A stretch of DNA of 34,617 nucleotides from a virus (IMGVR_UViG_2541047909_000003), one strand, 5' to 3'; counted from the first letter of the stretch, positions 1-30,255 are shown. The notes: generated by a model not told the origin, from the sequence alone. Numbers and translations are program-made.

Positions 1-147
1 TCAATAAATCCCATCATTGCGATCAACCTCATCCTTAACCATTGATGCGAGCAGTTCTTCCAGTTTCTGCGCTGACAGCTTTACCTGGTGATCTTCAGCA
101 TCTTCCCGGGCTATTGTGGTTCGCGCAGTGGCTGATTTTGCTGACAT
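1..147 (-). CDS. small hypothetical protein (about 49 aa) downstream of tfa remnant
   Basis: ATG near 147 running to TGA at 1-3 on minus strand (MSAKSATARTTIAREDAEDHQVKLSAQKLEELLASMVKDEVDRNDGIY); weak RBS, no recognisable motif. Confidence 0.2.
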   Translation of the reverse strand: MSAKSATARTTIAREDAEDHQVKLSAQKLEELLASMVKDEVDRNDGIY

Positions 148-233
148 CACCACAGGGGGCAGACGGACCATTGAACCATGGCCTCCGGAACAAATAAGGG
201 CAAAAATAACAACCACTATCGAAAGCTCACAAA

Positions 234-533
234 CTAACCGCAGCACGTTCCTGCATACGACGTGTCTGCGGCATAATCCCAATGATTACTCCCTGACAGG
301 ATTTGCAGGCCACTCAATATCGGTGCAGTTGATGTATCAACACGATTCAACAATACCCGATATTTATTCCATGCCTCCAGCAACGATCTTTCTTCCTCCG
401 TTGCGATTTCCAGATCTACAGCATCCTGCAGTGGCGCAATATACTCACTGAATTCCTGGATGTAGAACTGTGTGGTGACGGTCTTCCAGCCATTCGGCTC
501 CTGCTGTATCGAAGCATACCAGGCTAGAGCCAC
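234..533 (-). pseudogene. tfa: tail fiber assembly protein (Tfa) C-terminal fragment
   Basis: 99-aa ORF with Tfa C-terminal signature ([38 protein letters not shown], cf. lambda Tfa); the start is GTG with an in-frame TGA immediately upstream, so the usual N-terminal half of Tfa is absent; overlaps stf 3' end out of frame. Confidence 0.6.
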
Positions 534-3129: not shown

Positions 3130-3140
3130 ACTTTTCCACC

Positions 3141-3175
3141 AATAAAAAAAGCCCGCAGCAGTGACGCCACGGGCT
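3141..3175 (-). terminator. intrinsic terminator-like hairpin between lom and stf
   Basis: GCCCG-N14-CGGGC stem followed by T-run on minus strand (A-run aataaaaaaa on plus). Confidence 0.5.
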
Positions 3176-3280
3176 TCAGGACAGTGTAACTTTACGTTTC
3201 CTCAAACGCAGTTCACCCCATAAGGTGGATGAACCTGCGTATCATAACAATATTTACAGAAGATAAATCGGCGTCTGTTG

Positions 3281-3880
3281 TCAGAAACGGTATCCGATAC
3301 CAACAATAAATGCATCCGTTCGCCAGTCGCCACTACCGGAACCTTCATAAGCAAGGTCAATGGTCACGGATTCGGTCGGGTTAAACTGCACGCCAGCCCC
3401 CCACGCCAGAGACGTGTTGCTGTGGCGACCGTCATCACTTCCGGTCAGCACATCGTGCGTTTTCCCCTTGTTGTCAGTTACGCGGAGATAATCCCCGGAG
3501 AAAGTCGACACACGGCTGTAAGCCACACCCGCCATCGCATACGCGCTGAACCATTCATTCACGCGCACAGACGGCCCCGCCATCACGCTGAACCAGCGGT
3601 TACGCACGGAATCTTCATGCCAGCGGGTATCGCTGTAGCGCGTTTTTTGCTCATCCTCAGCATTGGCATAACTGAAGGACGTAATCAGCCCCAGCGCGTC
3701 CGTAAACTCATAACGGTATTTCACGTTAATCCCGTTCAGATCATCACTACCGGGAACGTTCGTCGAGGCATGGAGATACCCCGCGCTCAGCGTGGACTGA
3801 TGTTCTGCTGCACTCGCTGGCGTAGCAGCGGCGACCTGCCAGACTACTGCGGACAAAATAACAGCACATAATTTACGCAT
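3281..3880 (-). CDS. lom: Lom/Ail/PagC-family outer membrane beta-barrel protein
   Basis: 199 aa, signal peptide, aromatic-rich beta strands ending GIGYRF; located between J and stf as in lambda. Confidence 0.9.
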   Translation of the reverse strand: MRKLCAVILSAVVWQVAAATPASAAEHQSTLSAGYLHASTNVPGSDDLNGINVKYRYEFTDALGLITSFSYANAEDEQKTRYSDTRWHEDSVRNRWFSVMAGPSVRVNEWFSAYAMAGVAYSRVSTFSGDYLRVTDNKGKTHDVLTGSDDGRHSNTSLAWGAGVQFNPTESVTIDLAYEGSGSGDWRTDAFIVGIGYRF

Positions 3881-3902
3881 AATTACCTCTCGCTTTTCTG
3901 CA

Positions 3903-3929
3903 ATAAAAAAGGCGCCATTTCTGGCGCCC
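3903..3929 (-). terminator. intrinsic terminator-like hairpin between J and lom
   Basis: GGCGCC-N6-GGCGCC stem followed by T-run on minus strand. Confidence 0.5.
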
Positions 3930-3947
3930 GTATCTGGGTTATAAAAT

Positions 3948-6900
3948 TCAGCTAATCGTGATGCCTGCAGTGGCTTTCTTCATCACCACAACCAGCAAAT
4001 CGCTGATACTTGCTGTGGGATACCAGTTATTTACCAGCCATGCTGACACCGAAAACTCCAGTGTCATGTGACCGTGACCGGCAGGCATATCAATAACACC
4101 ACTGTAAATCAGCGTATTATCCAGCGCGGTACGGTTATAAATTTCAGCACCGTTTTTCCGCACTATCAGACGGCATGAGGAGTAAATATCAGTATGCTCT
4201 TTCTCATGTTTAGCGCCGCTGAATGCCACCGCCGGAATAACAATCTGCCGGTCAAACGGCTGATCGTCATAAACCCTGACGGTAATGGTTCCTGATGGCC
4301 ACCGCTCCGGTGCACGGGAGTCCCGGGGGAAAGCTTTGCCCACTGTTTTAACGAGATCGCCTTCAATCTGGTTCGCGGACAATTTTCCCAGAACCCGACA
4401 GTTCTCGTTAATCGTGACGTTGTTGAGCGTCCCGGAGTTCGCATTCACGTTACCGCTGATATCGGCATTTTTCGCCGTCAGCCGCCCGTCCGGTGTCAGG
4501 GAAAATGCCGGAGGATTACCGCCGCTGGTAATGGTCGGAGCCGTCAGGCGTTTCAGGAACACGTCGTTCATGAATATCTGATCGCCCTGACCAACAAACA
4601 TCGGCTTTGTGTTGCCATTCGCAGGATTAATCATCGCAATCCGGTCAGCAGCCAGAAGCACCTGACTCTGCATACCTGCTGGCGTATTCTCAATACCGAC
4701 TCCGATACCCGCAATATAAAGGCGTCCGTCCTTCATCTGCTGCAGTTTCACGGCCCACATGCTGTTCAGGTTATTATTTGTATCAACCTGAACTTTCTGT
4801 ATCTGCTGGATTGCCGCACTCTGGTCTTCCAGTTTTTTATTGACGGTCTGCGTGATTTCATTGCTGACATTCGTAATGGACGTCCTGATTTCAGCCAGGT
4901 CCGGCGCAAGCTGACCGTTATCAATCTGCGTCCACAACTCCTGGGCCAGATGTGTTTTCCCGATTTCTCCTTTGAAAAAATCCAGGTAACCTTCCGCATC
5001 ATCGCTCGCCCGACCGACAGCCTCCACGAATGCCGATTTGCCAACGGTGTTCACACTGCGAACGTAAAAATAATAATCATGGCCCGGTTTGATATTGATA
5101 CTGGCGGCTATCCAGTACAGCGCCGTACCAAGATAGCGGGCTGTGGTTTCAACCTGCCTGATATCGGTAATCCGCTTTTCTGAGAACCAGAACTCAAACT
5201 GTACCGTCGGGTCATAAACAGCAAGATGCGGCGTGGCGGTTATCTGAAAATAGCCCGGCGTCAGCTCAATCCGCGACGGTGCTGCCGGTGCGGCAATCCG
5301 GAAGGTGGTGGTGGCAGGTTCACCCTGCTGGCCATAGCTGTTTATCGCCCGCACCGTCAGGGTGTATTCCCCGAGCGGCAGGCCGCTGAAACGGTGCTCC
5401 GTGTCTGCGGTGATGGCGGTGGTCACCAGTCTGGCATCCGTTCCCTTACCACTGGTCAGGCGCAGACTGAAGCGCACGCCCTTCACCACCCGCGGCGTGT
5501 CCCATTTAGCCTGCGCCAGATACTGGCCGTCAGCTGCACTCACCTCCACCGTCAGGTGCTGTACTGCCGGTGGGATGACGCTGTTCAGGGAACCTGACTG
5601 CGGCTCAAAGCGGGCACCGTTATCCACGATGGCTTCTTTTTCCGGTACGTGCTGCACCGCCGTGATGGCAAAGGTGCCGTCCGTGTTTTCCCGGACGGAG
5701 ACACAGCGGAACAGGCGACGGCGCAGTGACGGCAGGGAGAGTCCCCACACCCCGTATGTCTCCACACCATCAGGCAGGGTACTGACCTGTATCCGGTCCG
5801 GCGCGGGGTGTGCGGTGATGTCCACACTCACCGGCTTACCGCTTCCGTTAATCAGGTTCACCGCCGATGTACCTGTCTCCGGCAGGGTAACCTCACGGTC
5901 CAGCGTCAGGGTGCGCGTGGCAGCATCAATGGACAGGACACGTCCGCCGGTCAGGGTCCCGGCATAGTCATTATCACAGATTTCAATAATGTCACCGGGT
6001 GTGTGCCGCAGCCCCTGAGACCCGAGCGTGAAATCCACCGTCTGCGTTTCCAGCAGTTCGGTCTTTATCACCCACAGTCCGGCACGGTGGGCCTGACCGC
6101 GGCTGGTACAGCCGAACGCGTCCATCTTCAGCAGGTTGCGTCCGTAGCGCAGTATGGCTTCCGGGTCTTCCACCAGTTCCGTGGAGGTCTGCCAGCCGTT
6201 CTGCGGGTCGGTGTAATTCACCTCCACCGCCGTGTGCCGGTCCTTCAGGGCACTGAAGCTGTAGCGGAATCCCACGCCGTTATCATCCACCACCACATCG
6301 CTGTTGGTGTACGGCCACACCACATCCGACGGGCGGTCCTGAACGAACGTCAGCGTCTGACCGTTCCATACCGGCATACAGCGCATCGCAGAGCAGAAAT
6401 CACTGAGAACGTCCCACGCCTTACGCTGTTGTGCCAGGTACGCATTAAAGGTCATCCGCGGCTCGGTCCCCCCGAAACCATCCGGGACCGTCTGGTCGCA
6501 GTACTGCCCGATGGCATACAGCGCCCACTTGTCCACATCCGCCGCCCCCAGACGTTTTCCCATGCCGTAGCGCGGGTGAGTCAGCATGTCCCACAGACAC
6601 CAGGCCGGGTTGTTGCTGTATGCCGGTTTCAGACTGCCGTCCCAGATACCACTATACGTGCGTTTTTCCGGGTCATAGTTTGACGGCACCTGGATGATGC
6701 GACCGCGGATATGGTAGTTCACCGTCATCTGCTGGCCGCCGAACTGCTCCGCATCCACCTGCAGCCCCACAATGGCCGTGTTCGGGTAGCACTGTTTCAC
6801 ATCGATGATTTCGGTGTATGACGACCACAGCGTCTTATTCTGCAGCTGGTCCGTGGTGCTGTCCGCCGTCTCCCTGACCATCCGGATGTTAAAGGGCCGG

Positions 6901-7421
6901 GGAGGCAGATTATCCAGAATCACCGAGGCCAGGAACTGTGAGGTGGTCTTGCCGTTAATGGTGACGTCCTTTTCTGTCACCCAGTTACCGTTACGCTGTA
7001 ACTGAATCAGCAGGCGGACGGATGCCGGGTTACGGTCACCCTTTGAGGTGGTCTCCACCAGTGACTGCACCCCGAAGGTAACCCGCAGGCGGTCAATGTT
7101 CGCGGACGTAATGGTGCGCGTCACCGGTTTTGCCTTCGTCACTTCCACGCCCAGTCCGGTTTCAGCTCCGGAGGACTCAAAGCCTTCCGGTGGTGTCTGC
7201 TCCTGCTCCCCGGCACGCCAGACCGCGGTCACACCGTGTATCACGGGATTGCCGTCCGTGTCCGTCAGTGGGGTTTTGTTCACCAGAATACTCTGCAGTC
7301 CCTTCACCGGACCTTCTATCGGTCCCTCACCAATCGCATCAATCACACTCATCATCTGCGTGGATTTGAGATTATCCTTCGCCTCACGAGGCGTGTGTGC
7401 CTTACCGCCACCTTTTCCCAT
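3948..7421 (-). CDS. J: host specificity (central tail fiber/tip) protein J
   Basis: 1157 aa; N-terminus [39 protein letters not shown] and long co-linear similarity to lambda J as recalled. Confidence 0.95.
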
Positions 7422-7524
7422 ACAGCCTTCCCCTGAATAAATTAACCGCCACTTGCCATTCCGTACAGAAGTCGGATATCCTTCGCCCGAAAAGCATGAA
7501 ACACATTTCTGCCATGCTAAAGAG

Positions 7525-7554
7525 AAACCCCGGTATCAGCAGATACCGGGGTTT
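7525..7554. terminator. 13-bp perfect hairpin (bidirectional terminator-like) inside expanded I-J spacer
   Basis: aaaccccggtatc-agca-gataccggggttt, T-rich on both sides. Confidence 0.4.
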
Positions 7555-7624
7555 TCTTTCATGCCCACCGATAATCCTGTTGGTTAAAACCGGTAATGGC
7601 ATAAAAATTCTGAATATCTTCACA

Positions 7625-7760
7625 TTTTCACACACTGACTGTGGCGCTTATAATTTCGCTGCGTTAGTGTTTTTTTGCCCGAGTAACAAAAACAACTCCT
7701 TAACATTGATCTTCATTTGTCTGTCCCCGCAGCTCCGCGATCACTGCGGGATTTTTTTAT
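7625..7760 (+). ncRNA. candidate small RNA (about 100 nt) antisense to late operon in I-J spacer
   Basis: Possible sigma70 promoter (TATAAT at about 7649-7654 with weak -35), CA-rich body (aacaaaaacaacucc), and strong intrinsic terminator cccgcag-N11-ctgcggg + T7 at about 7726-7759 on plus strand. Confidence 0.3.
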
Positions 7761-7763
7761 GTT

Positions 7764-8444
7764 TTATCCCTGTCGCCCGACAACCACGACCATTCCGCCC
7801 CCGCCTTCATCACGGGTGCTGATGTCCTGGGATATACGGCGGGAGCCAACCAGCATTTCCCCGTAAGGCACCGGCATCGGGTTCCCCTGGGCAATCATGT
7901 TATCCAGCGAGGAAAAGTACGTGTTCTGTCTGCCGTTATCCGTTGCGCGGTAATCCGGTGTTTTTGCCTTCGGGGCCAGCATCTGGGCCACACCGCCCAG
8001 AATCATGCTGGCTCCAAGTGAAAACAGCATCGTGGTGGCAGAAAAACCACCGGCTGCCAGGGCTGAACCCCATAACGCCATTGATGCCCCGGCAGTGAAG
8101 AAAGAGCCCACGATGGCTGCCGCCCCCAGCACAATCTGCAGTCCACCCTTTCCGGCCCCGGCCAGTCGCGGCACAATATGGATGACCGTTCCCTCACCCA
8201 GCTGTTCGTGAAGACGGGCGTACACCGCCTCCGGTGCCGTGTCATAACCGGCAATACGTATCTGGTACCAGCCTTCGTTCATCTGACGGCGAAAGCCCGG
8301 CACCTGTAACGACAGCGCCCGGATGGCTTCCGCTGCCGTGTTCACATACAGGCTGAGGCGGCGGCCAAATCGTTGTAAATCCCCGTGAAGGCAGATGCGT
8401 GCCAGTGGCGGTGACGCCAGACAGAATGCGTTCGTCGTTGCCAT
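7764..8444 (-). CDS. I: tail tip assembly protein I
   Basis: 226 aa; MATTNAFCLASPPLARICLHGDLQRFGRR resembles lambda I N-terminus; Gly/Ala-rich C-terminal region. Confidence 0.9.
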   Translation of the reverse strand: MATTNAFCLASPPLARICLHGDLQRFGRRLSLYVNTAAEAIRALSLQVPGFRRQMNEGWYQIRIAGYDTAPEAVYARLHEQLGEGTVIHIVPRLAGAGKGGLQIVLGAAAIVGSFFTAGASMALWGSALAAGGFSATTMLFSLGASMILGGVAQMLAPKAKTPDYRATDNGRQNTYFSSLDNMIAQGNPMPVPYGEMLVGSRRISQDISTRDEGGGGMVVVVGRQG

Positions 8445-9085
8445 TTTTCGGAATACCTCTCCCGTTTACTCAGTTGTTCAGGCAGATGGTGAAGCAGCTC
8501 ACCGTTGCCGCAGTAAATGGCGGCATGGTTCGGTACCGAAGCACCAAAGCAGCACAGCAGAATATCGCCCGCCTGTGCAGAGGACAGGGGCACCCGGTAA
8601 AAGCCGGTGACCGCCATATTGTCCAGGTAAAGGTTCTGACCGTTGCGCCACCAGTCATCCTCGCGATGAAAATCCGGCATTTCAGTCCCCGCCAGATGAT
8701 AAGCATCCCGGAACAGCGTGTAACAGTCCGTCACCCCGTGCTCAAAGCGCCGTCCTGTCAGATGTGGTACACAGCGGAATTTGTGAATGTCACCCCGGCA
8801 GACCAGCCACCAGGGCAGTGCGCTTTTTATCTGCAGCCGCCGGTCAGCCTCGCTCAGCCAGGGCAGCCCACCGGGATGACTGTGGACCAGTGCCACAATC
8901 TCCCCCTGCATCTCTGCCCGCAGCCAGTCTTCCGGTGCGATACGAAAATACGCCTCCGGCTCTGCAGAAATATTCACACAAGGGATATACCACTCCCCCT
9001 CCGGCGTGCTTATCACGAAGCCGCACGACTCCGCAGGCGCACACCGCCGGGCATGCGCCAGAATCGCTGATTCAGTCTGTGTCAT
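8342..9085 (-). CDS. K: tail tip assembly protein K (JAB/MPN + NlpC/P60-like)
   Basis: Starts MTQTESAILAHARRCAPAESCGF; HSHPGG JAMM-like motif; overlaps I start by about 100 nt as in lambda; the 310-aa track ORF has a spurious N-terminal extension. Confidence 0.85.
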   Translation of the reverse strand: MTQTESAILAHARRCAPAESCGFVISTPEGEWYIPCVNISAEPEAYFRIAPEDWLRAEMQGEIVALVHSHPGGLPWLSEADRRLQIKSALPWWLVCRGDIHKFRCVPHLTGRRFEHGVTDCYTLFRDAYHLAGTEMPDFHREDDWWRNGQNLYLDNMAVTGFYRVPLSSAQAGDILLCCFGASVPNHAAIYCGNGELLHHLPEQLSKRERYSEKWQRRTHSVWRHRHWHASAFTGIYNDLAAASACM

Positions 9086-9297
9086 AAACCGGGATTTACT
9101 GCGAAAGTTTATTAATGGAAAGGAAACCGCCAAAATTGCCGACATTCCTGCGCAGTTCACACCCGCGCATGCACTTGCTGCATCTGTCCTTACGGATATC
9201 CGTGGTGGGGTTGTCGAACTCATCCGCCACCGCAGGACCGTTAAGGTGCGCCCCAGACGGAGCGCAAGTCGCATCAGAAAGCGAATTTCCGGGCGGG

Positions 9298-9672
9298 CTA
9301 CTTTTTTCTGGCCGACTCTGCATCAGCGATCAGTTCCAGTGCCTGACGCAGCAACCGGGCATGTACCGGACCATAGACGGCCAGCACCTGCTCACGGTCG
9401 TCCGGAGCGAACACCCGCTGCAGATCCGTATCACACAGGACATCGCAGAACAGCGTCACATCCGCTTCCAGGTTACGGCGGGTTTTCGCCACCACCGACA
9501 GGGTATCGTCATCCTCTCCATCACCATTGAGCACTTCCTGCCACAGATACCAGGCCTCTGCCGAAGGCTCCCGCAGCACCACGCTGACATTACCCCATTC
9601 CGGCACCTTCACCGTTTTATGACGAAACCCTGACAGTCTGGCCAGCGCCAGCGTTTTCAGATCCTTTTTCAT
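9298..9672 (-). CDS. putative tail assembly chaperone (G-like position)
   Basis: About 124 aa from MKKDLKTLALARLSGF; acidic C-terminus; sits immediately after major tail protein gene; no T frameshift extension or tape measure follows. Confidence 0.45.
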   Translation of the reverse strand: MKKDLKTLALARLSGFRHKTVKVPEWGNVSVVLREPSAEAWYLWQEVLNGDGEDDDTLSVVAKTRRNLEADVTLFCDVLCDTDLQRVFAPDDREQVLAVYGPVHARLLRQALELIADAESARKK

Positions 9673-9686
9673 GATGACCCATCCCC

Positions 9687-10403
9687 TTATCCGGCGGCTG
9701 CGCTCACTGTCACGGTGCATTCAACAGACGTCACACTCTGTGCTTTCTCTGCCGAATCGGTCACCACGCAGGTATATTTCCCCGCATCAGCGGACTGCGC
9801 ACCTGGCTTACTGAAGGTGTCTGTCGTCTGCCCGTCAACCGGCTGACCATCCTTCTTCCAGGCGTATTTATACGGCGGCGTTCCCCCGTTGGCACTGACT
9901 GACATTGTCAGCAGCGCACCTGTATTCACGGTAAGTGTTTTATCCAGATTTTTCACAAACGCCAGCGGTACCACAAAGGACACCAGTTTGCCTTTCATAC
10001 GCAGTGAAAACGTTGCTGCCACCACGCCGTTGGTACCGGATGACCAGGTGTGCTGACGCACTTCCGCCAGGAACTTAAAGCCCTTACCGGACGGAAACAG
10101 CACCTTAAACGCATACAACGCGTCATTGTCATAGGCATCACGCAGGGCGTTCTGGGCCTGATTCAGATAAAAATTACCCGACATGGAAATCTCAGACGAC
10201 GCCCCCAGACCGTTGATGTTCTCCTGCTCGGTGGAGCAGAGCGTGGTCACATCAATATCCTGTTTCTGACCGGCGGTGAACTGGACTTCCTTGATGGTGC
10301 AGTCCAGGCGCAGATATTCCGCCTTATCCATAGTTTCAGCAGTCGCCGGGGCAGATGAAATCATCACCTGCGTCAGCTGTGAGCGTTCATACAAAGCAGA
10401 CAT
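9687..10403 (-). CDS. major tail (tube) protein with C-terminal Ig-like domain
   Basis: 238 aa; strong AGGAGG RBS; C-terminal segment PPYKYAWKKDGQPVDGQTTDTFSKPGAQSADAGKYTCVVTD is Ig-like (Big_2-type). Confidence 0.75.
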   Translation of the reverse strand: MSALYERSQLTQVMISSAPATAETMDKAEYLRLDCTIKEVQFTAGQKQDIDVTTLCSTEQENINGLGASSEISMSGNFYLNQAQNALRDAYDNDALYAFKVLFPSGKGFKFLAEVRQHTWSSGTNGVVAATFSLRMKGKLVSFVVPLAFVKNLDKTLTVNTGALLTMSVSANGGTPPYKYAWKKDGQPVDGQTTDTFSKPGAQSADAGKYTCVVTDSAEKAQSVTSVECTVTVSAAAG

Positions 10404-10416
10404 TCTGCCTCCTGAT

Positions 10417-10441
10417 AATAAAAAACCCGCACGCGGCGGGG
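10417..10441 (-). terminator. terminator-like hairpin upstream of major tail gene
   Basis: cccgc-acgc-ggcggg hairpin followed by T-run on minus strand. Confidence 0.35.
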
Positions 10442-10469
10442 TATGGGTTTTGTAGAAAAAAAGAAAAAG

Positions 10470-10814
10470 TCACACCGTGACCTGAAACTCCAGGGTTGCA
10501 CGGTAACAGCGGTTTTCCGGAATATAGTCCTGCATTTCACTGACGGATCCCGGGGCCAGCAGCATTATGGCTTCACGGGCGTCCTGACGTATCTGACGCG
10601 CCTGCGTCACAGTCCCGGCATAAACGTCTATCTGCACCGACACTGAGGACTCCGCCTGCCCGCCCATCACGTCCGCAGACACCGATGAAATCAGGCTGAA
10701 AACCACCCACGGAAGCGCCACCGACGGCCTGCCATCCAGCAGGGGGACCACATACGGGTACACCTGCCCGCCGGCAAGATGCGCCAGATGAGGATACAAA
10801 TCCGCCTCCGTCAT
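10470..10814 (-). CDS. tail component (tail terminator, U-like position)
   Basis: 114 aa; position between Z-like and major tail genes; pattern DGRPSVALPWVVF loosely like lambda U. Confidence 0.45.
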   Translation of the reverse strand: MTEADLYPHLAHLAGGQVYPYVVPLLDGRPSVALPWVVFSLISSVSADVMGGQAESSVSVQIDVYAGTVTQARQIRQDAREAIMLLAPGSVSEMQDYIPENRCYRATLEFQVTV

Positions 10815-11257
10815 CGTCTCAGTACCTCATCAATGGCCCGGTTCATCCGCGCAATCGCCACCTGAGCTGCCTGTTCACTGCGCACATCAAACGCCGGGCG
10901 CACAAACGGGTGCGGTGGCATATTCACGGTCCCCATTTCCACAAACCGCCAGTAGAAAGCATTGCGCGGGTTATCCGCCTTCATGGTGTTATCGCTGTTA
11001 CCGGTGTCCGGATTAACACCACGGATATGGACACCGGATTCCATCCCGCCATCGCGGGAGCGCCGGGAAAGGACCACCACATTGCGGCGCAGTTTTCCCC
11101 TGCGTACCGGTGCCCGTGACACCACTTCTTCTTTCAGCACATTCGCACCCGCACGGGTTGCCTCACGCAGCACCCGGTTATTTTCCGCACCACTCAGAAG
11201 CTGCAAATCGCGGCTGATGTCCTCCAGCCCCGAAAAATCCAGCAGGGTTTCGATCAT
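10811..11257 (-). CDS. HK97 gp10-family tail completion protein
   Basis: 148 aa; HPFVRPAF motif and gene order. Confidence 0.65.
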   Translation of the reverse strand: MIETLLDFSGLEDISRDLQLLSGAENNRVLREATRAGANVLKEEVVSRAPVRRGKLRRNVVVLSRRSRDGGMESGVHIRGVNPDTGNSDNTMKADNPRNAFYWRFVEMGTVNMPPHPFVRPAFDVRSEQAAQVAIARMNRAIDEVLRR

Positions 11258-11604
11258 TTTTCCCCTCCCAGCCGACAGAGAATTTCCAGACGCCCGCCGG
11301 TCGCATCCGGCACGGGCAGCCCGACAACGTTCAGGATCCGGTCACGCCATGGACCACTCAGCACATGAAGTCGTGACGCTGCCGTGATTTCCCGACCGGA
11401 CTGACCGCGCACCCAGATGCGGATTTCCGCCTGCGCCATTTCCGCACCGGACTGCATCCGCTCCCGGCTGCTCCTGCCTCGGATATCCGCATGAATTTTC
11501 CCGCATGACACCCATTCTTCCGTCATTTCTCCGGCAGCGTTACGGGTTAACACCGGGTTCAGAACACTTATCATCTGTGTCAGACGACCTGCAGATATTG
11601 CCAT
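11254..11604 (-). CDS. head-tail adaptor / head closure protein
   Basis: 116 aa; size, overlap coupling and position after connector gene. Confidence 0.6.
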   Translation of the reverse strand: MAISAGRLTQMISVLNPVLTRNAAGEMTEEWVSCGKIHADIRGRSSRERMQSGAEMAQAEIRIWVRGQSGREITAASRLHVLSGPWRDRILNVVGLPVPDATGGRLEILCRLGGEK

Positions 11605-11613
11605 TCCCCCTCC

Positions 11614-11940
11614 TCATAACACCGTCGGACAACGCAAATCGTAAATCAGCACGGAAACAGAAAACGGCAGCTCCCCCTGAAGCAGTTCTTCCCGCTCCGC
11701 AAGATCCGGATTCCGGTACAGCATCCCGGTCAGTCGCATGGCAGCCCCCTTCATCCGGGTTAATGCCTCGCCCGGGATCAGTTCACCGTCCTCACGGATC
11801 ACTTTATCCCGGCTGCCCTGAATGTAGGCCAGCAGCACGGCGGTAGCCTGACGAACCTTGTCCATCAGCATGTCATCATCCGCGTCATGGTCGACACGCA
11901 GATGTGCCTTGATCTCTTCCAGTGTCAGTAATGCCGTCAT
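11614..11940 (-). CDS. gp6-like head-tail connector protein
   Basis: 108 aa; N-terminus MTALLTLEEIKAHLRVDHDADDDML typical of the family. Confidence 0.7.
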   Translation of the reverse strand: MTALLTLEEIKAHLRVDHDADDDMLMDKVRQATAVLLAYIQGSRDKVIREDGELIPGEALTRMKGAAMRLTGMLYRNPDLAEREELLQGELPFSVSVLIYDLRCPTVL

Positions 11941-11942
11941 TT

Positions 11943-12392
11943 TCAGCCTCCTGCATCCCGCCCACGTTTTGCAGCCAGGGTCCAGGCTGATGAATGAGCT
12001 TCTCCGGGTTTATCTTCGGTCATACTGTTGCAGTGCCACAGCGAGCCCCCCCACGTCACCGTATCGCCGGGGTGGTAGGTTTCACCGGCTCTGAACACAC
12101 CGCGGTAGAGCATCACCGGCAGGGAAAATGTTTTTTCCGTACGCTGGCCACTGCTCTGCCGGACCACCACAGAGAACAACCGCTCACCCGTCATGCTGAC
12201 GTCAATATCCGCCACCCCGTCAACCAGGCATTCCCATCCCCGCATCCCGTGCGTTTTTTCATACGCCCGCCAGAGTCCGCCCTGGTGTGTGGCATACGTG
12301 CCCCGGGGAAAGGATTTTTGATCGTCAATGGCGGGGAGTATTTCCAGAGCCGTGGCATCACGCCCGTCCTGCGGAGCCGGCAGGGCACTCAC
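11943..12392 (-). CDS. hypothetical phage protein, possibly a remnant at a deletion junction
   Basis: 149-aa ORF between TerL fragment and connector genes, where portal, protease and major capsid genes are expected. Confidence 0.3.
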   Translation of the reverse strand: MSALPAPQDGRDATALEILPAIDDQKSFPRGTYATHQGGLWRAYEKTHGMRGWECLVDGVADIDVSMTGERLFSVVVRQSSGQRTEKTFSLPVMLYRGVFRAGETYHPGDTVTWGGSLWHCNSMTEDKPGEAHSSAWTLAAKRGRDAGG

Positions 12393-17537: not shown

Positions 17538-19409
17538 TTATGATGATGCCGGTGCATTTATCTCCAGCACCAGACTTTCTATCTCAACGCCATACGCTGC
17601 ATTTTTGGTAATATCCGTCAGCGTCAGCGCATTCAGCCCCAGTGTCAGACTGTCTTTTATGACCTGGAATGCCGGGCCAGCCACTCCATTCAGTTTCGGA
17701 GTAACCGTGGCACTGCCGGCGGTGAACACCAGCTCCAGCGTCTGCCAGTCGTTACTGTAATTCCCGAACTCGCCCAACTTTGTGTTTCCGGCTTTCTTGT
17801 GATGCATCAGATTCAGTTTGCCGTCTGTGGTCTGGGTGAAGAACGACATCAGGAACGGGTTACCAGTCCCGGTCATCGCCACGACGTCAGGTAACGCTAC
17901 ATCGGTATACAGATAAATTCCCAGACCGAACTGGTTGTTGGTCAGTGCGCCTGACAGTCGAAACTTACAGCTCAGTCTGCCACCCCGTGTCAGCAGGGAG
18001 ACTGCGTCATCCACCGGATGCATCAGGGACCAGGTTTTATTGCTCTGCTTGGTAACCTTAAACACACCATCTTCCAGCGCAACACTGCCGCCGGTGATGG
18101 TCCAGCCCTGCGCAGCAGCCTCTCCGGCTGTCGGCAGCAGGGAGACTGTACGAACGGATGTGTCACCATCAGACGGCCCCGATGGCGTGTCGCCGCCGGG
18201 CGAGGGTTTAATCTCCGGTGCGGTACCGCTGATGAAGGCGCTGGTTCGACCAACTGCGTTCAGAATAGCGGTTGCCAGGCGATCCGAAATAATGCCCCTG
18301 CGCGCCCATGAACTGAAATGTGTCGGACGATTTGACGATACCCAATTACCATTACTACGGGATTGCGCGCCGTAATAACCTGCATCAGCAATATCCGGGT
18401 CTTCTGCCGGTAAGTTGGTGGGCGTGTTGTTGCCGTTACCGTCGGTCATGAACGGCACAAAGAAAACGTTGTCGCTCTCCCTGTTTTTGTACGCGCCGTA
18501 GACGGAGTCATACTGTGTGCCGTATGTGTTTTTCCAGTAATACGTCGTGTCGCCACAAATCCACGGTACAACTGCAGCACTGCCGCCATGGCACTGCGCG
18601 TTAAATCCGGAAAGGTCAGTACGGAACTGCTTCAGCATGGCCGTGAACAGGTCCGGTTGCTGTGCGTAGGTGGCAGCGCTCATGTCAAATTCCCCCTGCA
18701 TCCAGCATATCGCCAGCAAAACGTTTTTCGGGTTTTTCTGCAATGCTGCCTTCGTGCGGAAAAGCAGATCCTGATATAACGGCTTACCCACTCCCCAGCG
18801 AGCCGAATCCTGACTGGCCCCCGTGGACTCGCTGAATGTCCCCTCCGTGCCCTTGGTGAATGCCGAACCACCACGACAGCATGGTACCAGCAGGATCCCC
18901 GCATTATTAGGGATATACGGAAGCAGTTTTTTGGCAATATGTAAGCCCTGTCCGACACAACCGTACTGCCCTTTGCTCAGGTCAGCCCGGGGATGGTTAA
19001 TCGTACTCATATCCTGAACATCATGCAGACAATGGTCAGCAGGAATGATGTCGTTAAATACGCATACTTCGCCACCGGGAGTCACTGTGTTACGACGGGC
19101 CAGTTGCTTAATGCGCGGATGGGGCGCATCGTATGAATCCGGAAGCGGAAGCCCTTCACCGTAAGCCATGGCATTGGACTGCCCGGCCAGTACGATGACG
19201 TAGTACCACTCCGGCTCAGTTGCACCACTGACGACCACATCACCTTCTGCTGCAATCGCCTGCATCAGGGTATAAGGGGTTATGGCCACCGGACTACCAA
19301 ACGGCTGCCAGCCCTCTTTCAGTTTATGTGTCAGCTTTTCCGCAAGATCTGACGGCGACGCCGCCCTGACAACATCATAGTGTTTAAATGCCATGGTTCT
19401 TTCCACCAT
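17538..19409 (-). CDS. prophage sialate O-acetylesterase (NanS-p-like) with N-terminal DUF1737
   Basis: 623 aa; MAFKHYDVVRAASPSDLAEKL N-domain then VIVLAGQSNAMAYGEG esterase (SASA-like) motif; same position relative to lysis genes as in Stx phages. Confidence 0.8.
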   Translation of the reverse strand: MVERTMAFKHYDVVRAASPSDLAEKLTHKLKEGWQPFGSPVAITPYTLMQAIAAEGDVVVSGATEPEWYYVIVLAGQSNAMAYGEGLPLPDSYDAPHPRIKQLARRNTVTPGGEVCVFNDIIPADHCLHDVQDMSTINHPRADLSKGQYGCVGQGLHIAKKLLPYIPNNAGILLVPCCRGGSAFTKGTEGTFSESTGASQDSARWGVGKPLYQDLLFRTKAALQKNPKNVLLAICWMQGEFDMSAATYAQQPDLFTAMLKQFRTDLSGFNAQCHGGSAAVVPWICGDTTYYWKNTYGTQYDSVYGAYKNRESDNVFFVPFMTDGNGNNTPTNLPAEDPDIADAGYYGAQSRSNGNWVSSNRPTHFSSWARRGIISDRLATAILNAVGRTSAFISGTAPEIKPSPGGDTPSGPSDGDTSVRTVSLLPTAGEAAAQGWTITGGSVALEDGVFKVTKQSNKTWSLMHPVDDAVSLLTRGGRLSCKFRLSGALTNNQFGLGIYLYTDVALPDVVAMTGTGNPFLMSFFTQTTDGKLNLMHHKKAGNTKLGEFGNYSNDWQTLELVFTAGSATVTPKLNGVAGPAFQVIKDSLTLGLNALTLTDITKNAAYGVEIESLVLEINAPASS

Positions 19410-19990: not shown

Positions 19991-20021
19991 GGAGTTTACT
20001 CACATCTGACAAAATCAATAT

Positions 20022-20048
20022 AAACAGCCCCTCCGGAGAGGGGCTGGA
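20022..20048 (-). terminator. terminator-like hairpin (minus-strand orientation)
   Basis: cagcccctc-cgga-gaggggctg 9-bp stem followed by T/A-rich tract on minus strand. Confidence 0.4.
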
Positions 20049-20411
20049 GAGTGGCGCTATGTGCCATTGCATGGTGCCGGGTGCCTCCCGGTGAATTCAG
20101 TACCAGCACCTGAATCCGCGATTATCCCATATACCTACTCGCTGATTGCCCCTCCGCACAGGGGGATTCACCATGCGATGTAATTTTTAACAAATTCTCC
20201 GGCAGCCAGACAATCATCAAGCTGTGGAATTGTGAGGTATTTAAAAATTTCAACGGGTAACTGATACCCTGCTAATCGCCTGATGCTTTCTTTTTCAGCA
20301 ACGGGAAAGCAACAACCACACACCCGCCACCAAAACACCATCAGACAGCACCGACATTATCCGGCTGCTGAAGTCCACCATCACCACCAGAAACAACAGG
20401 AGTGCAACCAC

Positions 20412-20469: not shown

Positions 20470-20546
20470 TGGACCGCCATCGGGGACTTGAACCCCGCGC
20501 AGCCAGCTTCGAAGGCTGGCGCTCTATCCCGATGAGCTAATGGCGG
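20470..20546 (-). tRNA. tRNA-Arg (anticodon UCG)
   Basis: Full cloverleaf by hand-fold: 7-bp acceptor stem, D-arm, anticodon loop CTTCGAA, T-arm CGGGG-TTCAAGT-CCCCG, encoded CCA. Confidence 0.8.
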
Positions 20547-20553
20547 TATGTGA

Positions 20554-20629
20554 TGGTGGCCCTTGCTGGATTTGAACCAGCGACCTGGCGATTATGAGTC
20601 GCTCGCTCTCACCACTGAGCTAAAGGGCC
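20554..20629 (-). tRNA. tRNA-Ile2 (anticodon CAU, lysidine-type; ileX/ileZ-like)
   Basis: Full cloverleaf; anticodon loop CTCATAA; body nearly identical to E. coli ileX as recalled; encoded CCA. Confidence 0.85.
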
Positions 20630-22302: not shown

Positions 22303-23124
22303 CTATCGCGTTACCCTCTTTAACTGCCGCTCCGCCCATGCCTCTTCAATGTCAAACCGAACCACCAACGTATCGTAAAAGCGTTTCACTGATTTTTTCC
22401 ACGTATCAAGCGTGATAGCACTCGTCACTTTGCATATGGCATTAAATGCCTCCGTTGATGGCAGCCTTTCACAGCCACGACCACCACAACGCTGGCAGTC
22501 TCTGATAACAGGCATACCACGTTTTACCGACTCTTCACGATGAATGGCGACACCACGCCCACGGCAATCCTTACAGGCGGTGGAAACCTCACCCTTTCCG
22601 CCACACTCCGGACAGGCAACTTTTACCACCTCCCTGACTTTTTTCCATTCTTCCCAGTAAGACGGATACACGCCTTTTGTGCACTTTGCCCACACTGGTG
22701 GCTTACCATCCGGATACTGGATCTTGTTTGTAAAAACCTCGCTTTCAATAAATTTTTTTCCGTGACAGCAGGGGCACTGTTTTTTGCTCGCCGCGCTACG
22801 GGCATAATCTTCAAACGCATACGAAGCCATAATGCGCATCACTACCGGTTTTATTTCTGCCGGAAGTTTTCTCAACGCCGCCACACGATCGCACCGACTG
22901 AGTGCATAATCTGCCAGTAATTCTGTTGCCCGCGCCCTGTCATTCATACTGATGCCCATTTTCCCCAGGAACGCAGAAAAACCCATCTCAGCCCGATTCT
23001 GTGTCATGCCCTGCGCGGCCATCACATCAGTGATACTCAGCGCATCTTTTGACGTTGAGGCCGATGCATCGGTCAGGCCGGGGGATTTTGGGGAGTAGTA
23101 TTTCGGTAAATCTTCCAGTTTCAT
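22303..23124 (-). CDS. Q: antitermination protein Q (long, zinc-finger-containing type)
   Basis: 273 aa with several CxxC pairs (CPCCHGK, CPECGGKG, CKDCRGRG, CQRCGGRG); followed by pR'/tR'; preceded by rusA. Confidence 0.8.
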   Translation of the reverse strand: MKLEDLPKYYSPKSPGLTDASASTSKDALSITDVMAAQGMTQNRAEMGFSAFLGKMGISMNDRARATELLADYALSRCDRVAALRKLPAEIKPVVMRIMASYAFEDYARSAASKKQCPCCHGKKFIESEVFTNKIQYPDGKPPVWAKCTKGVYPSYWEEWKKVREVVKVACPECGGKGEVSTACKDCRGRGVAIHREESVKRGMPVIRDCQRCGGRGCERLPSTEAFNAICKVTSAITLDTWKKSVKRFYDTLVVRFDIEEAWAERQLKRVTR

Positions 23125-23501: not shown

Positions 23502-24557
23502 TTATGCTTTCCACTTCAGAACACCCGAATTTCTCGCGTGCATTAAAAAACGAATCAGCAACAACAGCTGGCTGCCGTGTTTTTCTTCAAAATCTTTTAC
23601 CCCGGCGTGTAGTTCGCTATGGCATTTACGGCACAGCGGAATAACAAACAAATCATCAGCCTTTGTTCCCATCCCTCCCAGTCCATGACCAATGATGTGA
23701 TGCGGATCATCTGCCTGATTGCCACACGTCATGCATTTCTGCGTTTTTACCCAACGCGTGTATACAGGCATCTCTTCCCGTTGTGATTTCTGGCGCTGGA
23801 GATACTGAGCCGGTGACTCCGGATCAACGGCAATGCTGACCACCGTCTTTTCCTGTGGCGGGTTTTGCTGGTGGGCGTGAGGCAGCGGCGCAAGATTTTT
23901 TGTGCGCTGCTTCAGTATGCTGGTGGCGATCTGCTCTCCCGGTACGATGTCGCTTTCACGGTACATTGAGCGGATTTTTTCCGCACGCAACCCCAGCGAA
24001 CGACGTAATACCGCTTCCGGTAGCGCGTCCGCCACCTGATTGCGGACCGCCCACCAGGATAATTCAGCCAGCGATAATTCCCGTTCCTGCGAGCCATTCA
24101 TTGCATGGCGTATGACGTCAATCATCCATGCAAACAGGTTTTGGTGAGCAAGTTGCCCGAGTGATTCGGAGGTCTGGTCGCGCAGCTGGTTGTCGCAGTG
24201 CCAGCACAACACCATTGCGCCGGTACCATAACGGTGAATGACGGTTTCACTGTGGTGATAATCGCCGTGTGGCCACTGGCAGGATTTAACATGGCGCAGT
24301 AACCAGTCAGACAATGCGCCAGCGCCACCAGCAGCACGAATCACTCGTTCGTCGCTGAAAAATGGCAGTAATGATTTATCCTCCGCCAGCGGCTGGCGAA
24401 CGGCAGGAACGACCCCGGACGGCAGATTACGCATGCTTTTCGGTTCCGGCTCCACCAGTACCCGGGTATTGTGGAATACCGGCATGGATTCACGGCCCGG
24501 CTTAACGATCACCAGCCCGAGTTCCGGTACCAGAACAGGTCGAAGTAATACCCGCAC
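23502..24557 (-). CDS. DUF968-like protein with C-terminal HNH-type Cys/His motif (YdfU/NinG-like position)
   Basis: 351 aa; C-terminus CMTCGNQADDPHHIIGHGLGGMGTKADDLFVIPLCRKCHSELH. Confidence 0.55.
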   Translation of the reverse strand: MRVLLRPVLVPELGLVIVKPGRESMPVFHNTRVLVEPEPKSMRNLPSGVVPAVRQPLAEDKSLLPFFSDERVIRAAGGAGALSDWLLRHVKSCQWPHGDYHHSETVIHRYGTGAMVLCWHCDNQLRDQTSESLGQLAHQNLFAWMIDVIRHAMNGSQERELSLAELSWWAVRNQVADALPEAVLRRSLGLRAEKIRSMYRESDIVPGEQIATSILKQRTKNLAPLPHAHQQNPPQEKTVVSIAVDPESPAQYLQRQKSQREEMPVYTRWVKTQKCMTCGNQADDPHHIIGHGLGGMGTKADDLFVIPLCRKCHSELHAGVKDFEEKHGSQLLLLIRFLMHARNSGVLKWKA

Positions 24558-24998: not shown

Positions 24999-25154
24999 TT
25001 ACTCCTCAGGTTCGTAAGCTGTGAAGACAGCGACCTCCGTCTGGCCGGTTCGGAGTCGTACCTCGCAGAGGTCTTTCCTCGTTACCAGTGCCGTCACTAT
25101 GACGGTTAAACAGATGACGATCAGGGCGATTAACATCGCCTTTTGCTGCTTCAT
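24999..25154 (-). CDS. hok: Hok/Gef-family type I toxin
   Basis: MKQQKAMLIALIVICLTVIVTALVTRKDLCEVRLRTGQTEVAVFTAYEPEE, near-identical to HokD/RelF as recalled. Confidence 0.85.
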   Translation of the reverse strand: MKQQKAMLIALIVICLTVIVTALVTRKDLCEVRLRTGQTEVAVFTAYEPEE

Positions 25155-25330
25155 AGCCTGCTTCCCCTTGCCTTTCGGCACGTAAGAGGCTAACCTACAT
25201 TTGTGAGACATAGATTGGGCCTCAGATTAATGTTAAGCGTCTTGCAGGACGCGAAATGTTAACTGGGGCTTTTCTCTATCTGCCTTTCAGTGTTCATGCC
25301 TGAGACAGATAGCCTCAAGCACCCGCAGCC
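25155..25330. promoter_or_regulatory. hok leader with predicted antisense sok RNA and fold-back elements
   Basis: Leader contains inverted segments (gcttgaggctatctgtctcaggcatg) typical of hok mRNA structure; exact sok ends not determined. Confidence 0.35.
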
Positions 25331-25391
25331 ATTCTACTTAACTCACGTCACCTCGCCAATATGAAATCAATCAGAAAGGTGATCCATAAAA

Positions 25392-26078
25392 TCACTCCTT
25401 CTCTTCTTTTCCGTAGTGGAGTTGGCCAATTTTGATAAGAGGGCGTCCCTGAGATTTGCGGTGTAGATTGGTATCGCGCAGAGAATACACACAGCCACAA
25501 TATTCCTGCTGATAGAATTTTTCGCGCTTGCTGATTTCAATCATACGGGACGAGCCGCCCTGCTTGCGCCAGTTATAATCCCAGTACACCATACCCGGAT
25601 AATGCGCAACAGCTCGCCGCCCACACTCGTTAACCTGCTGCATATTTTTCCAGCGTGAAATGCCCAGTGAACTGCTGATCACACTGAAACCATTTTCAGC
25701 AGCGTACAACGCTGTCCGCTCAAAACGCATGTCAAAACACATGGTACAACGGATCCCCCTCTCAGGCTCCCATTCCATTCCTTTGGCACGTTCAAACCAG
25801 TTGTCGGTGTCGTAATCAGCATCGATAAACGGCACGCCGTGTTGTTCAGCAAAGCGAATATTTTCATCCTTACGAATTAAATACTCTTTCTGAGGATGAA
25901 TGTTCGGGTTGTAGAAAAAGATGGTGTAGTCGATTCCCGAGGCCTGAAGCGCCTCCATCACTTCACCGGAACATGGAGCACAGCAAGAGTGCAGTAGTAG
26001 TTTGTTTGCCCCGTTTGGGAGCTCCAATTTAGGCCGTTTGAAATCAGCAATAGTCATAAATATTTTTATTGGGGTCAT
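25392..26078 (-). CDS. QueH-like protein (DUF208, epoxyqueuosine reductase family)
   Basis: 228 aa; N-terminal [11 protein letters not shown] and C-terminal EYCGCVYS motifs as recalled for QueH; own AT-rich upstream region. Confidence 0.65.
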
Positions 26079-26231
26079 GAAAATAGCACAGAGTGTAGCA
26101 TCAGAGCAGGGCTATCGGGAATATATGTCTAAATCTGGTAATATCTGGTTTTGACGCAAAGCGGACAACCACGCTGGCTCTACCCTGCGCCATGAAAATG
26201 TCAATTCACATCTGAACTAATGCTCTTTAAT

Positions 26232-26657
26232 CTAGTAACGTCTAAAATACCTAACATTTCCTTGATAAAATGCCAGTACACGCTGCATAGCTTCGCTCTT
26301 CCGGCACTCGCGACAGATTATATTCAGGCGCCTGTCGTAGCGGCGTATTTCGCCGTCTGGTAACGACCAGATAAGGTCCGGATCAACCACTGCAGGTTTC
26401 TTCACCTTTGCCCTTGAGAGTTTTTTGCGAGCATTTTGCCAGTCCTTACGCGCCTGTTCAGACGGGAATAACCCGTAACCAGAGTTGTATACATCGCCAC
26501 TGGCAACCAGCTCTCTGGCCAGAACGCTCATCAGATATCTTGTTGCCCCAGTTTTAGTTTCCAGTTGTCGTAACGTCTCGCGCCCACTCTGGCGTACGAG
26601 TTCAACAACCTGCCCTTTAATTTTCTCCCGCTCTTCTTGTGTAAAAACTTTTGCCAC
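26232..26657 (-). CDS. hypothetical 141-aa protein downstream of replication initiator
   Basis: Basic protein with one CxxC (ICRECRK); occupies the position of lambda P but is too short and lacks loader motifs. Confidence 0.35.
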   Translation of the reverse strand: MAKVFTQEEREKIKGQVVELVRQSGRETLRQLETKTGATRYLMSVLARELVASGDVYNSGYGLFPSEQARKDWQNARKKLSRAKVKKPAVVDPDLIWSLPDGEIRRYDRRLNIICRECRKSEAMQRVLAFYQGNVRYFRRY

Positions 26658-26697: not shown

Positions 26698-27660
26698 TTA
26701 CCCCCTGAAGCCCGGCGGAATTTCAGTGTCCGGTTCAGAAATGTGATTCACGCAACGCTGCGCAGGCGAACGCCCCAGGCGGATAACCAGTTCATCCCAT
26801 TTTTCCCGGAGTTTTGCCGGACTCATGATGTTTTTTACCCAGAACGAATCCCGCTGGAGACGCCCAAACATTTCACAAATTTGTCTGTGAGTTCTGCCAT
26901 CCAGCATCCGCATTGTGCGAACGTCATTGGCCCATGCTGTCCAGTTGGGTTCTTTCGGTCTAGTGATCTCGCCATCATCGCTGGCCGCCTGCTCGTAAAG
27001 ACTCACGATTCGTCCCCAGATCCACTGTGCGCACACCAAATCTTCCTGACTTCCCCACTGGCGTTTTTTCGCACTGAACACAACCGCGTCAGGGTGTCGG
27101 GTTAAAAAATCCTGTTCAGCCGTCTGCGGGTCCGGTTGCGAAGCGTCCGGACAAGAAGATCTTTTATCTGACGGATCAGGTTTTAATACTGACGGATCGG
27201 GGTCAATCATCGCCCCCCTAATCGGCAGTTTTTTATCAACAGTTGATCCATCAAAATTTGACGGGTCAACCGTTGAGGGGTCAATATTTGACGGGTCAAC
27301 TGTTAACGGGTCATTTTTTGCCGGGCTAATTTTTCTTTTCGGTTTATATGACTCACGCGCCGCCGCCGCAGCTGCTTCGAGTTTTTCCACATTAAGCCGA
27401 TAGATATTGCTTACATTACGCCCACCGACCTTACGCTCTTCCTTCGTCAGCCAGCCCTCTTTCGCCAGTTCTGCAATAGCCGATTTCACTGTGGATTCAC
27501 TTCTTGCACCGATCTGACGCCGGATAGTTTCAATGGCAGGCCATGACACGCCCTCGTCATTGCTGTAGTCTGCAAGACGGGCCATAACCGCCACCCTGGA
27601 TAAGATCATGCCGGTGAAGGCGCACCCTTCCCAGACAAGACCATGAAGCTTGCTGCTCAT
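26698..27660 (-). CDS. replication initiation protein (O-like architecture, iterons inside gene)
   Basis: N-terminal HTH (ARLADYSNDEGVSWPAIETIRRQIG...STVKSAIAELAKEGWL), central repeat VDPSNIDPSTVDPSNFDGSTVD encoded by DNA iterons. Confidence 0.7.
   Translation of the reverse strand: MSSKLHGLVWEGCAFTGMILSRVAVMARLADYSNDEGVSWPAIETIRRQIGARSESTVKSAIAELAKEGWLTKEERKVGGRNVSNIYRLNVEKLEAAAAAARESYKPKRKISPAKNDPLTVDPSNIDPSTVDPSNFDGSTVDKKLPIRGAMIDPDPSVLKPDPSDKRSSCPDASQPDPQTAEQDFLTRHPDAVVFSAKKRQWGSQEDLVCAQWIWGRIVSLYEQAASDDGEITRPKEPNWTAWANDVRTMRMLDGRTHRQICEMFGRLQRDSFWVKNIMSPAKLREKWDELVIRLGRSPAQRCVNHISEPDTEIPPGFRG
27181..27320. repeat. origin-like iterons within initiator gene
   Basis: Direct repeats of TTGACGGGTCAAC-type units (at least 4 copies) with adjacent A/T-rich tracts. 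Confidence 0.5.
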
Positions 27661-27682
27661 AAAACCCCCGAACACCGTGCTT

Positions 27683-28438: not shown

Positions 28439-28858
28439 ATGGTTCATGAAGATAAAGCGCGTAAAGAGTTCGCCAGTAGGCTTGCGCTAGCCTGTGAAAA
28501 CGCTGGTTATGAACAACATGGAAGGCAGGCAGAAATTGCCCGTCGAATGAAATTAACACCAAAAGCGGTTAGCAAATGGTTTAATGGCGAAACAATTCCT
28601 CGCCGGGAGAAATTAAGGGAATTAGCAACACTAATAGGAACAACACCAACCTATCTTTTGGGAGAGGATACAGAAGAAAGTGGACAGGTACGTTTCTATC
28701 AGGAGTTAAATCCAAGACAAAAAATCATCATTGACCTTCTGGACGAGCTCCCTGACAGTGAGACAGATGAACTTTTAAAAACTCTTGAAGAGAAAAAACA
28801 GAAGTACAATGCAATTTACGAAGAGTTAGCACGAAAGAAAAAACAAAAAGCCTCTTAA
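28439..28858 (+). CDS. prophage repressor, XRE-family HTH (no S24 peptidase domain)
   Basis: 139 aa; HTH QAEIARRMKLTPKAVSKWFNGETIP; charged/coiled C-terminus. Confidence 0.8.
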   Translation: MVHEDKARKEFASRLALACENAGYEQHGRQAEIARRMKLTPKAVSKWFNGETIPRREKLRELATLIGTTPTYLLGEDTEESGQVRFYQELNPRQKIIIDLLDELPDSETDELLKTLEEKKQKYNAIYEELARKKKQKAS

Positions 28859-29688: not shown

Positions 29689-30255
29689 TAGCTAACCAAC
29701 GAAGCTAAGGTTGGTAATTAAGGAGTTCTCCACGGATGAGGTGGAGTGCGTGCGCCGGACACGGGTGAGCATCCGGCACAGACAGTTTACTGAAAGGATA
29801 TTTCCCTGAAAGGTCAGACCATAACGCGAAAGCGCACGGCGAGGTAGCTGGTTCATAGATAGCCTGTCGTTAAATTTTCGTCGACCGTGCGCTTCCGGTT
29901 GTGGCAATCCGCGAAATGGCGCGGCGGTGAGTATGGCGGGGTTATTCCTTCCCCGTTGAGGACACCGGGTTGTCAGGTTGACCATACGCTTAAGTGACAA
30001 CCCCGCTGCAACGCCCTCTGTTATCAATTTTCTGGTGACGTTTGGCGGTATCAGTTTTACTCCGTGACTGCTCTGCCGCCCTTTTTAAAGTGAATTTTGT
30101 GATGCGGTGAATGCGGCTGAGCGCACGCGGAACAGTTAAAACCAAAAACAGTGTTATGGGTGGATTCTCTGTATCCGGCGTTAATTGTTAACTGGTTAAC
30201 GTCACCTGGAAGCACCAGGCACCGCATCACAAAATTCATTGTTGAGGACGCGATA

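Follow-up and report, generated by a model that had tools for sequence, protein, structure and literature searches.

A predicted QueH-type epoxyqueuosine reductase gene carried as mobile cargo by a lambdoid prophage

Results

Organization of the early-right region

We analysed a stretch of 34,617 nucleotides of viral DNA (IMGVR_UViG_2541047909_000003), hereafter called the window. Along its minus strand, the genes run in the order cro-like, YdaT-like, HTH O-like initiator (26698-27675), DUF977, queH, hok/sok, orf90, DUF968, RusA and Q antiterminator (22303-23124). A cI-like repressor gene (28439-28858) diverges from these on the opposite strand. A prophage of E. coli IPCEC42 that is 96.8% identical lies next to ompW; it is a complete element of the lambdoid type and has head genes of the HK97 type. 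The gene order of the window bears out the earlier note on this DNA, which described queH as prophage cargo with replication genes on one side and the nin region on the other; in this place, queH is variable cargo of a lambdoid prophage.

The slot that holds queH is bordered by two conserved genes, both on the minus strand. Its upstream neighbour, which defines the slot, is a DUF977/Ren-like gene (26232..26657; Pfam DUF977, E 3e-28; phrog_142, 'Ren-like exclusion protein'), and the downstream border of the variable region is a DUF968/HNH-like gene (23502..24557; Pfam DUF968, E 1.6e-63), after which RusA and Q follow. Between them (window 24999-26231), queH and hok/sok were found. A mok/hok-type frame of 70 aa (24999..25211, minus strand) contains a Hok toxin domain at residues 25-66 (Pfam Hok/gef, PF01848, E 1.6e-22); RefSeq places a 51-aa HokD inside this frame, and hokD is annotated in the near-identical prophage. 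The hok/sok regulatory RNA region (25149..25324, minus strand) matched the full Rfam 'sok' model RF01794 at 120.5 bits, the gathering score of which is 59. Both matches confirm the addiction module that had been described directly downstream of queH. Sok is antisense to the leader of hok, yet the RF01794 match is on the hok strand; what the model describes is probably the leader region of the hok mRNA and not the Sok transcript.

The contents of the slot vary among related prophages. In O157:H7 Z1812 (positions 9806-11816 of locus L001), hok has given way to a Dcm-like methylase and an NgoMIV-like endonuclease beside queH, and the homology with the window breaks off within the hok/sok leader. 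The slot of E. coli strain 20 (positions 4017-6406 of locus L094) has no queH and holds AbiH and an unknown 463-aa protein encoded on the other strand. The presence of AbiH and this unknown gene in place of queH marks the slot as a cargo hotspot.

Module swapping was also observed directly upstream of the slot. Where the window has one HTH_36 protein of 325 aa as its replication module, the middle of which is repetitive and rich in DPS (26698-27675), the IPCEC42 and O157 prophages, similar in other respects, carry genes for an O-like protein, a DnaC-like ATPase and DUF1627. Farther downstream, past the Q antiterminator and a DNA methylase, are two phage tRNA genes (20470-20629). One encodes tRNA-Arg (UCG); the other has a CAU anticodon and was called Met by ARAGORN, its homologue being Ile according to RefSeq. 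Neither tRNA is a queuosine substrate.

The queH reading frame and its product

An uninterrupted ORF of 228 codons was found at 25392-26078 on the minus strand, in the same direction as the early-right operon, and its translation contains the motifs on which the earlier note had based its assignment, namely an 11-residue motif and YCGCV. This longest ORF reaches an ATG at 26078 that is absent from three plasmid-borne copies of queH, which have ATT or ACT instead. The ATG at 26057 (26057-26055) and its context, ATTTATGA, are invariant across the aligned mobile copies, and the RefSeq model of the protein (WP_000150294.1) is 221 aa long. As the ATG at 26057 is invariant and that at 26078 is not conserved, a 221-aa product is likely; the true start is probably the ATG at 26057, and the coding sequence would then span 25392..26057 (221 aa plus stop).

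The profile search placed the protein in the QueH (DUF208) family, as had been proposed. Pfam PF02677 matched over profile positions 1-174 of 175 at E 1.1e-65 and 221.5 bits, the curated cut-off being 23.5 bits, and the solved QueH of T. maritima (7lc5) matched residues 27-203 at E 7.8e-22. In an alignment of 31 diverse QueH sequences (36-72% identity), all 19 invariant columns are kept in the prophage protein. Seven invariant cysteines are present (C25, C26, C29, C104, C107, C187 and C189, in the motifs CCxPC, CxxC and CGC), as are the invariant residues N52, E58, Y59, R62, E99, R103, R111, K137, Q184, G188 and S192. The conserved cysteines of QueH are reportedly, in work by Li et al. from 2021, metal ligands. 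The N-terminal motif of the prophage protein, CCAPC, is the family norm, occurring in 100 of the 104 QueH representatives that have the motif, whereas T. maritima QueH deviates from this norm with CCAPD.

An AlphaFold model of the protein (pLDDT 75.7, pTM 0.78) had as its top five PDB matches the QueH crystal entries 7lc7, 7lc5, 9d86, 9deu and 9dco, with target-normalised TM of 0.80-0.81, rmsd of 3.0-4.7 Å and a probability of 1.00; the matches that ranked after these were generic adenine-nucleotide-alpha-hydrolase-fold proteins only. The protein has no extra domain. In fold, full-length profile and invariant residues, it is like known QueH (DUF208, PF02677, EC 1.17.99.6; T. maritima PDB 7LC5, 7LC7, 9DEU). 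Judged from sequence and predicted fold, it is a bona fide QueH orthologue with an intact set of catalytic motifs.

The name of the enzyme is unevenly used in databases. RefSeq already gives 'epoxyqueuosine reductase QueH' to this gene in about 1000 E. coli genomes; since NCBIfam release 20 has no match to the prophage protein, the RefSeq name must rest on other evidence. In PHROGs, phrog_3217 matches the prophage QueH (25395-26057) at E 1.7e-138 and is labelled 'unknown function'; this model is truncated at the N terminus and has 188 positions. The queH of Escherichia phage HannyBb is annotated as 'hypothetical protein', and no paper on a phage-borne QueH turned up when the literature was searched for QueH or DUF208 in combination with phage or prophage. 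The enzyme family, the reaction and the gene name are all already known, and nothing here is categorically new; labelling these entries as QueH is a simple annotation fix for phage databases.

A predicted promoter upstream of queH

The upstream region of queH had been described as AT-rich and its own. It is only mildly AT-rich (GC 0.43 versus about 0.50), and it contains a conserved promoter-like element, a predicted extended -10, TGcTACACT (TGCTACACT; pattern TGnTAnnnT), at 26100-26092 on the minus strand. Of six mobile copies that were aligned, five share the sequence TGATGCTACACT unchanged (window, HannyBb, O157 prophage, Salmonella IncF and Klebsiella IncFII), and the sixth, from a Klebsiella IncR plasmid, reads TGAATGCTAAAAT. 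At an equal distance upstream of chromosomal queH, TGCTACA[CA]T-like elements were found in Scandinavium, Kluyvera, Enterobacter, Symbiopectobacterium and Erwinia. The element implies a predicted transcription start near 26085 and an A/U-rich leader of about 28 nt, from which a Shine-Dalgarno sequence is absent. The -35 of this predicted promoter is poor, and a generic two-hexamer sigma-70 scan called no promoter upstream of queH, so that the proposal rests on conservation. A terminator scan found none between queH and hok. We infer from the conserved element that queH has its own promoter, which would be active in the lysogen.

The Rfam search of the window, with E up to 1, gave no riboswitch or known RNA element upstream of queH, such as a cobalamin or preQ1 riboswitch, and at the gathering threshold no RNA element was found at three plasmid queH loci. 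Given that there is no upstream riboswitch, nothing in the sequence ties queH expression to B12 status. Just upstream of the predicted promoter lies a direct repeat, ACCAGAtATTACCAGAtTTA, with two ACCAGAT copies 10 nt apart (26120-26165, minus strand). The repeat is shared by the prophage, HannyBb and the Salmonella plasmid and is not conserved in the Klebsiella copies; it could be a regulator site.

A mobile queH module under purifying selection

Homology breakpoints delimit a mobile module, made up of the predicted promoter and the coding sequence, at approximately 25390..26155 on the minus strand. Homology to the window spans 26153-25388 in a Salmonella IncF plasmid, 26122-25385 in a Klebsiella IncFII plasmid and 26173-25386 in HannyBb. 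Conversely, QueH-less prophages match the window up to about 25389 from the hok side and up to about 26144-26157 from the DUF977 side. From these sharp breakpoints, the size of the module was set at about 0.76 kb. No flanking direct or inverted repeats of a transposon, integron or att-type cassette were found at its boundaries.

The dN/dS ratio of queH was 0.046 against the HannyBb copy (7 non-synonymous and 33 synonymous changes) and 0.039 against the Salmonella IncF plasmid copy. Overall, pairwise ratios among mobile copies were 0.02-0.06, with dS of 0.29-2 between the diverged ones. Such strong purifying selection argues that the gene is in use.

The nearest relatives of the prophage protein come from elsewhere in the Enterobacterales, from Erwinia, Providencia, Proteus, Photorhabdus, Serratia, Dickeya and Gibbsiella, whose QueH matches it at 78-86% identity; the promoter-like element, too, is common to the prophage gene and chromosomal Enterobacterales queH. 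The chromosomal context was inspected in three lineages. In Providencia and Erwinia, queH lies among core genes, between tmcA-side genes and purC in the former and between purL and glrK in the latter; in Photorhabdus, the chromosomal gene is beside benE and toxin-complex genes. The prophage gene looks like a capture from an Enterobacterales chromosome together with its presumed native promoter. QueH in Erwinia and the other genera named above also makes the statement that enterobacteria normally use QueG too broad for the order; for E. coli, in which queG was found in 5425 of 5426 complete genomes, the statement stands.

Beyond the Enterobacterales, the prophage protein is 75-80% identical to QueH from Sphingomonas, Stenotrophomonas, Pseudomonas and Neisseriaceae (L048, L055, L075 and other loci). 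These values suggest that the proteobacterial QueH clade is unusually conserved, through either very strong constraint or wide horizontal spread.

Distribution of queH

We found queH in 994 of the 5426 complete E. coli genomes (about 18%), and 706 of these copies are at least 99% identical. With queG in nearly every one of the same genomes, queH is catalytically redundant there. The gene sits in the same slot across related prophages: 879 E. coli genomes have queH joined to DUF977, and 796 have it joined to hok/sok, while part of the DUF977-queH probe, mostly its DUF977 end, is matched by 2691. All 80 IMG/VR loci with an identical QueH protein have DUF977 upstream; downstream of queH, 56 have hok, 21 have the Dcm-like methylase of a restriction-modification pair, and 3 end with the contig. 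One isolated phage, HannyBb, carries queH in the same slot beside a hok-type gene.

In IMG/VR, a single-protein scan for close relatives detected queH in about 190 contigs. A scan guided by a profile and run over 2.9 million contigs of the same database gave 216 relatives, about 190 of which were already known from the single-protein scan. With only 216 relatives among 2.9 million contigs, QueH is rare in viruses, and the prophage lineage is dominant.

Plasmids are a further setting of the gene. A queH homologue was present in 302 plasmid records, among them 99 from Klebsiella and 67 from Escherichia. Three plasmids that were inspected (Klebsiella and Salmonella) are IncF/IncR replicons in which queH is a lone gene, and their copies (L004 6004-6672, L005 6022-6690 and L006 6022-6690) have the 0.76-kb module with the promoter element; one copy adjoins fec iron-citrate genes and another IncFII repA. 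The module also occurs without hok/sok, both on IncF/IncR plasmids and on chromosomal islands of Klebsiella, Salmonella, Enterobacter and Scandinavium.

Discussion

E. coli has no de novo cobalamin synthesis; because its QueG needs a cofactor that the cell cannot make, oQ accumulates without B12. QueG is a cobalamin and [4Fe-4S] enzyme (PMC4646009), and QueH is treated as its cobalamin-independent counterpart (PMC11906303; PMC13443448). In the summary of Frey 1988 that is given in PMC6850298, bacteria have oQ34 on glucose-salts medium without B12 and Q34 in rich media.

Against this background, we consider it likely that the prophage queH is a moron-type cargo gene encoding a functional QueH, which would give the lysogen a B12-independent conversion of oQ to Q from the gene's own promoter, with a benefit directed at the host. 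As a cobalamin-independent iron-sulfur epoxyqueuosine reductase, the enzyme would convert oQ34 to Q34 on tRNA-Asp, Asn, His and Tyr. The 0.76-kb self-contained module would have been captured from an Enterobacterales chromosome and placed in the early-right cargo slot of a lambdoid prophage, where its own promoter would drive queH expression in the lysogen; through QueH, the lysogen would finish Q whatever the B12 supply. As queH is co-oriented with the PR operon, expression after induction is expected too. We infer enzymatic activity, expression in the lysogen and B12 independence as the selected benefit from the sequence comparisons described above. Of the reprogramming of tRNA queuosine status that had been envisaged for the infected cell, this completion of oQ to Q without B12 appears to be the only plausible part. 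We know of no phenotype that separates oQ-tRNA from Q-tRNA, and a fitness benefit of queH is for this reason a conjecture.

The prophage protein and QueG, the housekeeping enzyme of E. coli, would have their reaction in common, oQ34 to Q34 on tRNA (PMC9508795; PMC13443448). QueG, in contrast, is non-homologous, needs B12 and is core in E. coli (5425/5426), whereas queH is accessory (994/5426). The two enzymes also co-occur in S. aureus, and this has been attributed to different cofactor availability (PMC13443448). What sets the prophage copy apart from known QueH is its place, a lambdoid early-right slot (and IncF plasmids as well) in species with a QueG of their own. It resembles lambdoid morons and lysogenic-conversion cargo in that it is a single gene with an autonomous promoter-like element, has conserved phage genes on either side, is present in only some of the related prophages and can give way to other cargo; it differs from them in that the cargo is a tRNA-modification enzyme, with its own predicted promoter, and not a toxin, exclusion or defence gene.

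Other explanations for the presence of queH were weighed against these data. The gene might be a neutral hitch-hiker, a functional or decaying passenger spread by its linkage to the prophage and hok/sok that benefits neither phage nor host. QueG in essentially every E. coli host genome, the adjoining post-segregational killing locus and the 706 of 994 copies with at least 99% identity, which fit recent clonal spread, all agree with such a passenger, but a dN/dS of 0.02-0.06 at a dS of 0.29-2 between diverged mobile copies does not. Moreover, the module is independently retained on plasmids and chromosomal islands without hok/sok, its promoter element is conserved, and the O157-type variant retains queH with hok swapped for a restriction-modification pair. 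We regard neutral passage as unlikely. A function in conflict is, in our estimate, very unlikely. Here a change of Q34 on GUN-anticodon tRNAs would alter the susceptibility to anticodon nucleases or superinfection, or would tune the decoding of phage NAU/NAC codons in lytic growth. The company that queH keeps speaks for it, with AbiH in the slot of strain 20 and the Dcm-like methylase and NgoMIV-like endonuclease beside queH in the O157-type variant, as does the orientation of queH with the early-right operon, by which it would also be made after induction. However, PADLOC gave no match to QueH, DUF977, orf90 or DUF968, while the AbiH control from the slot did match; the protein is a near-unchanged orthologue of housekeeping QueH (80-86%) that has no extra domain and no accelerated evolution; on plasmids, the module adjoins metabolic and iron-uptake genes; and the prophage tRNAs (Arg-UCG and CAU) are not Q substrates. 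In a wider form that we consider a long shot, the oQ/Q state of GUN-anticodon tRNAs would matter in conflict or niche adaptation and would keep queH in a cargo/defence hotspot. The gene might, for example, offset the cost to tRNA modification when the B12 and phage/colicin receptor BtuB is lost or repressed, or it might change the susceptibility to anticodon-targeting nucleases or superinfecting phages; if true, the final step of queuosine synthesis would gain its first phenotype.

That the substrate of QueH is a 7-deazaguanine base of phage DNA and not tRNA is extremely improbable; the earlier note had raised a 7-deazaguanine-type DNA modification as one possibility. The idea was rejected because no partner gene was found. 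oQ is made on tRNA by QueA, and we know of no oQ in DNA. Of 58 features annotated in the 96.8%-identical prophage, none is a DpdA/TGT-like transglycosylase, FolE, QueD, QueE or QueC, and Pfam scans of 15 window ORFs, taken from outside the tail region (1-12000), gave no DpdA/TGT-like or preQ0-synthesis gene. The same module, furthermore, lives on plasmids and bacterial chromosomes. All that favours a DNA substrate is the general precedent of phages that use queuosine-pathway enzymes on DNA (PMC6884629). The phage clusters in question (DpdA with FolE, QueD, QueE and QueC) share with this prophage the presence of a queuosine-pathway enzyme in a phage; they put preQ0-derived bases into DNA, for which DpdA and preQ0-synthesis genes are required, and do so without QueA, QueG or QueH, whereas only QueH was found in the prophage. 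In a survey of queuosine-pathway genes in viruses, QueA, QueG and QueH were not found among the viruses analysed (Hutinet et al. 2019, PMC6884629).

The setting of queH is mildly notable: the viral survey reported no QueH, yet about 18% of the complete E. coli genomes have the module, and so do hundreds of plasmids from enterobacteria. Its abundance, the purifying selection on it and the retention of its apparent native promoter in hosts with queG argue that cobalamin-free conversion of oQ to Q may have real fitness value. The queH module also offers a natural, easily deleted gene for asking whether oQ and Q differ physiologically.

Other features of the prophage

Two small RNAs were recognized in the prophage, STnc100 at 20016-20206 (133.7 bits, minus strand) and DicF at 30030-30081 (76.7 bits, plus strand). 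Upstream of the lysis genes, positions 17538-19409 encode a protein of 623 aa that contains DUF1737, SASA (sialate O-acetylesterase-type) and DUF6645 domains and resembles the esterase cargo genes of lambdoid prophages.
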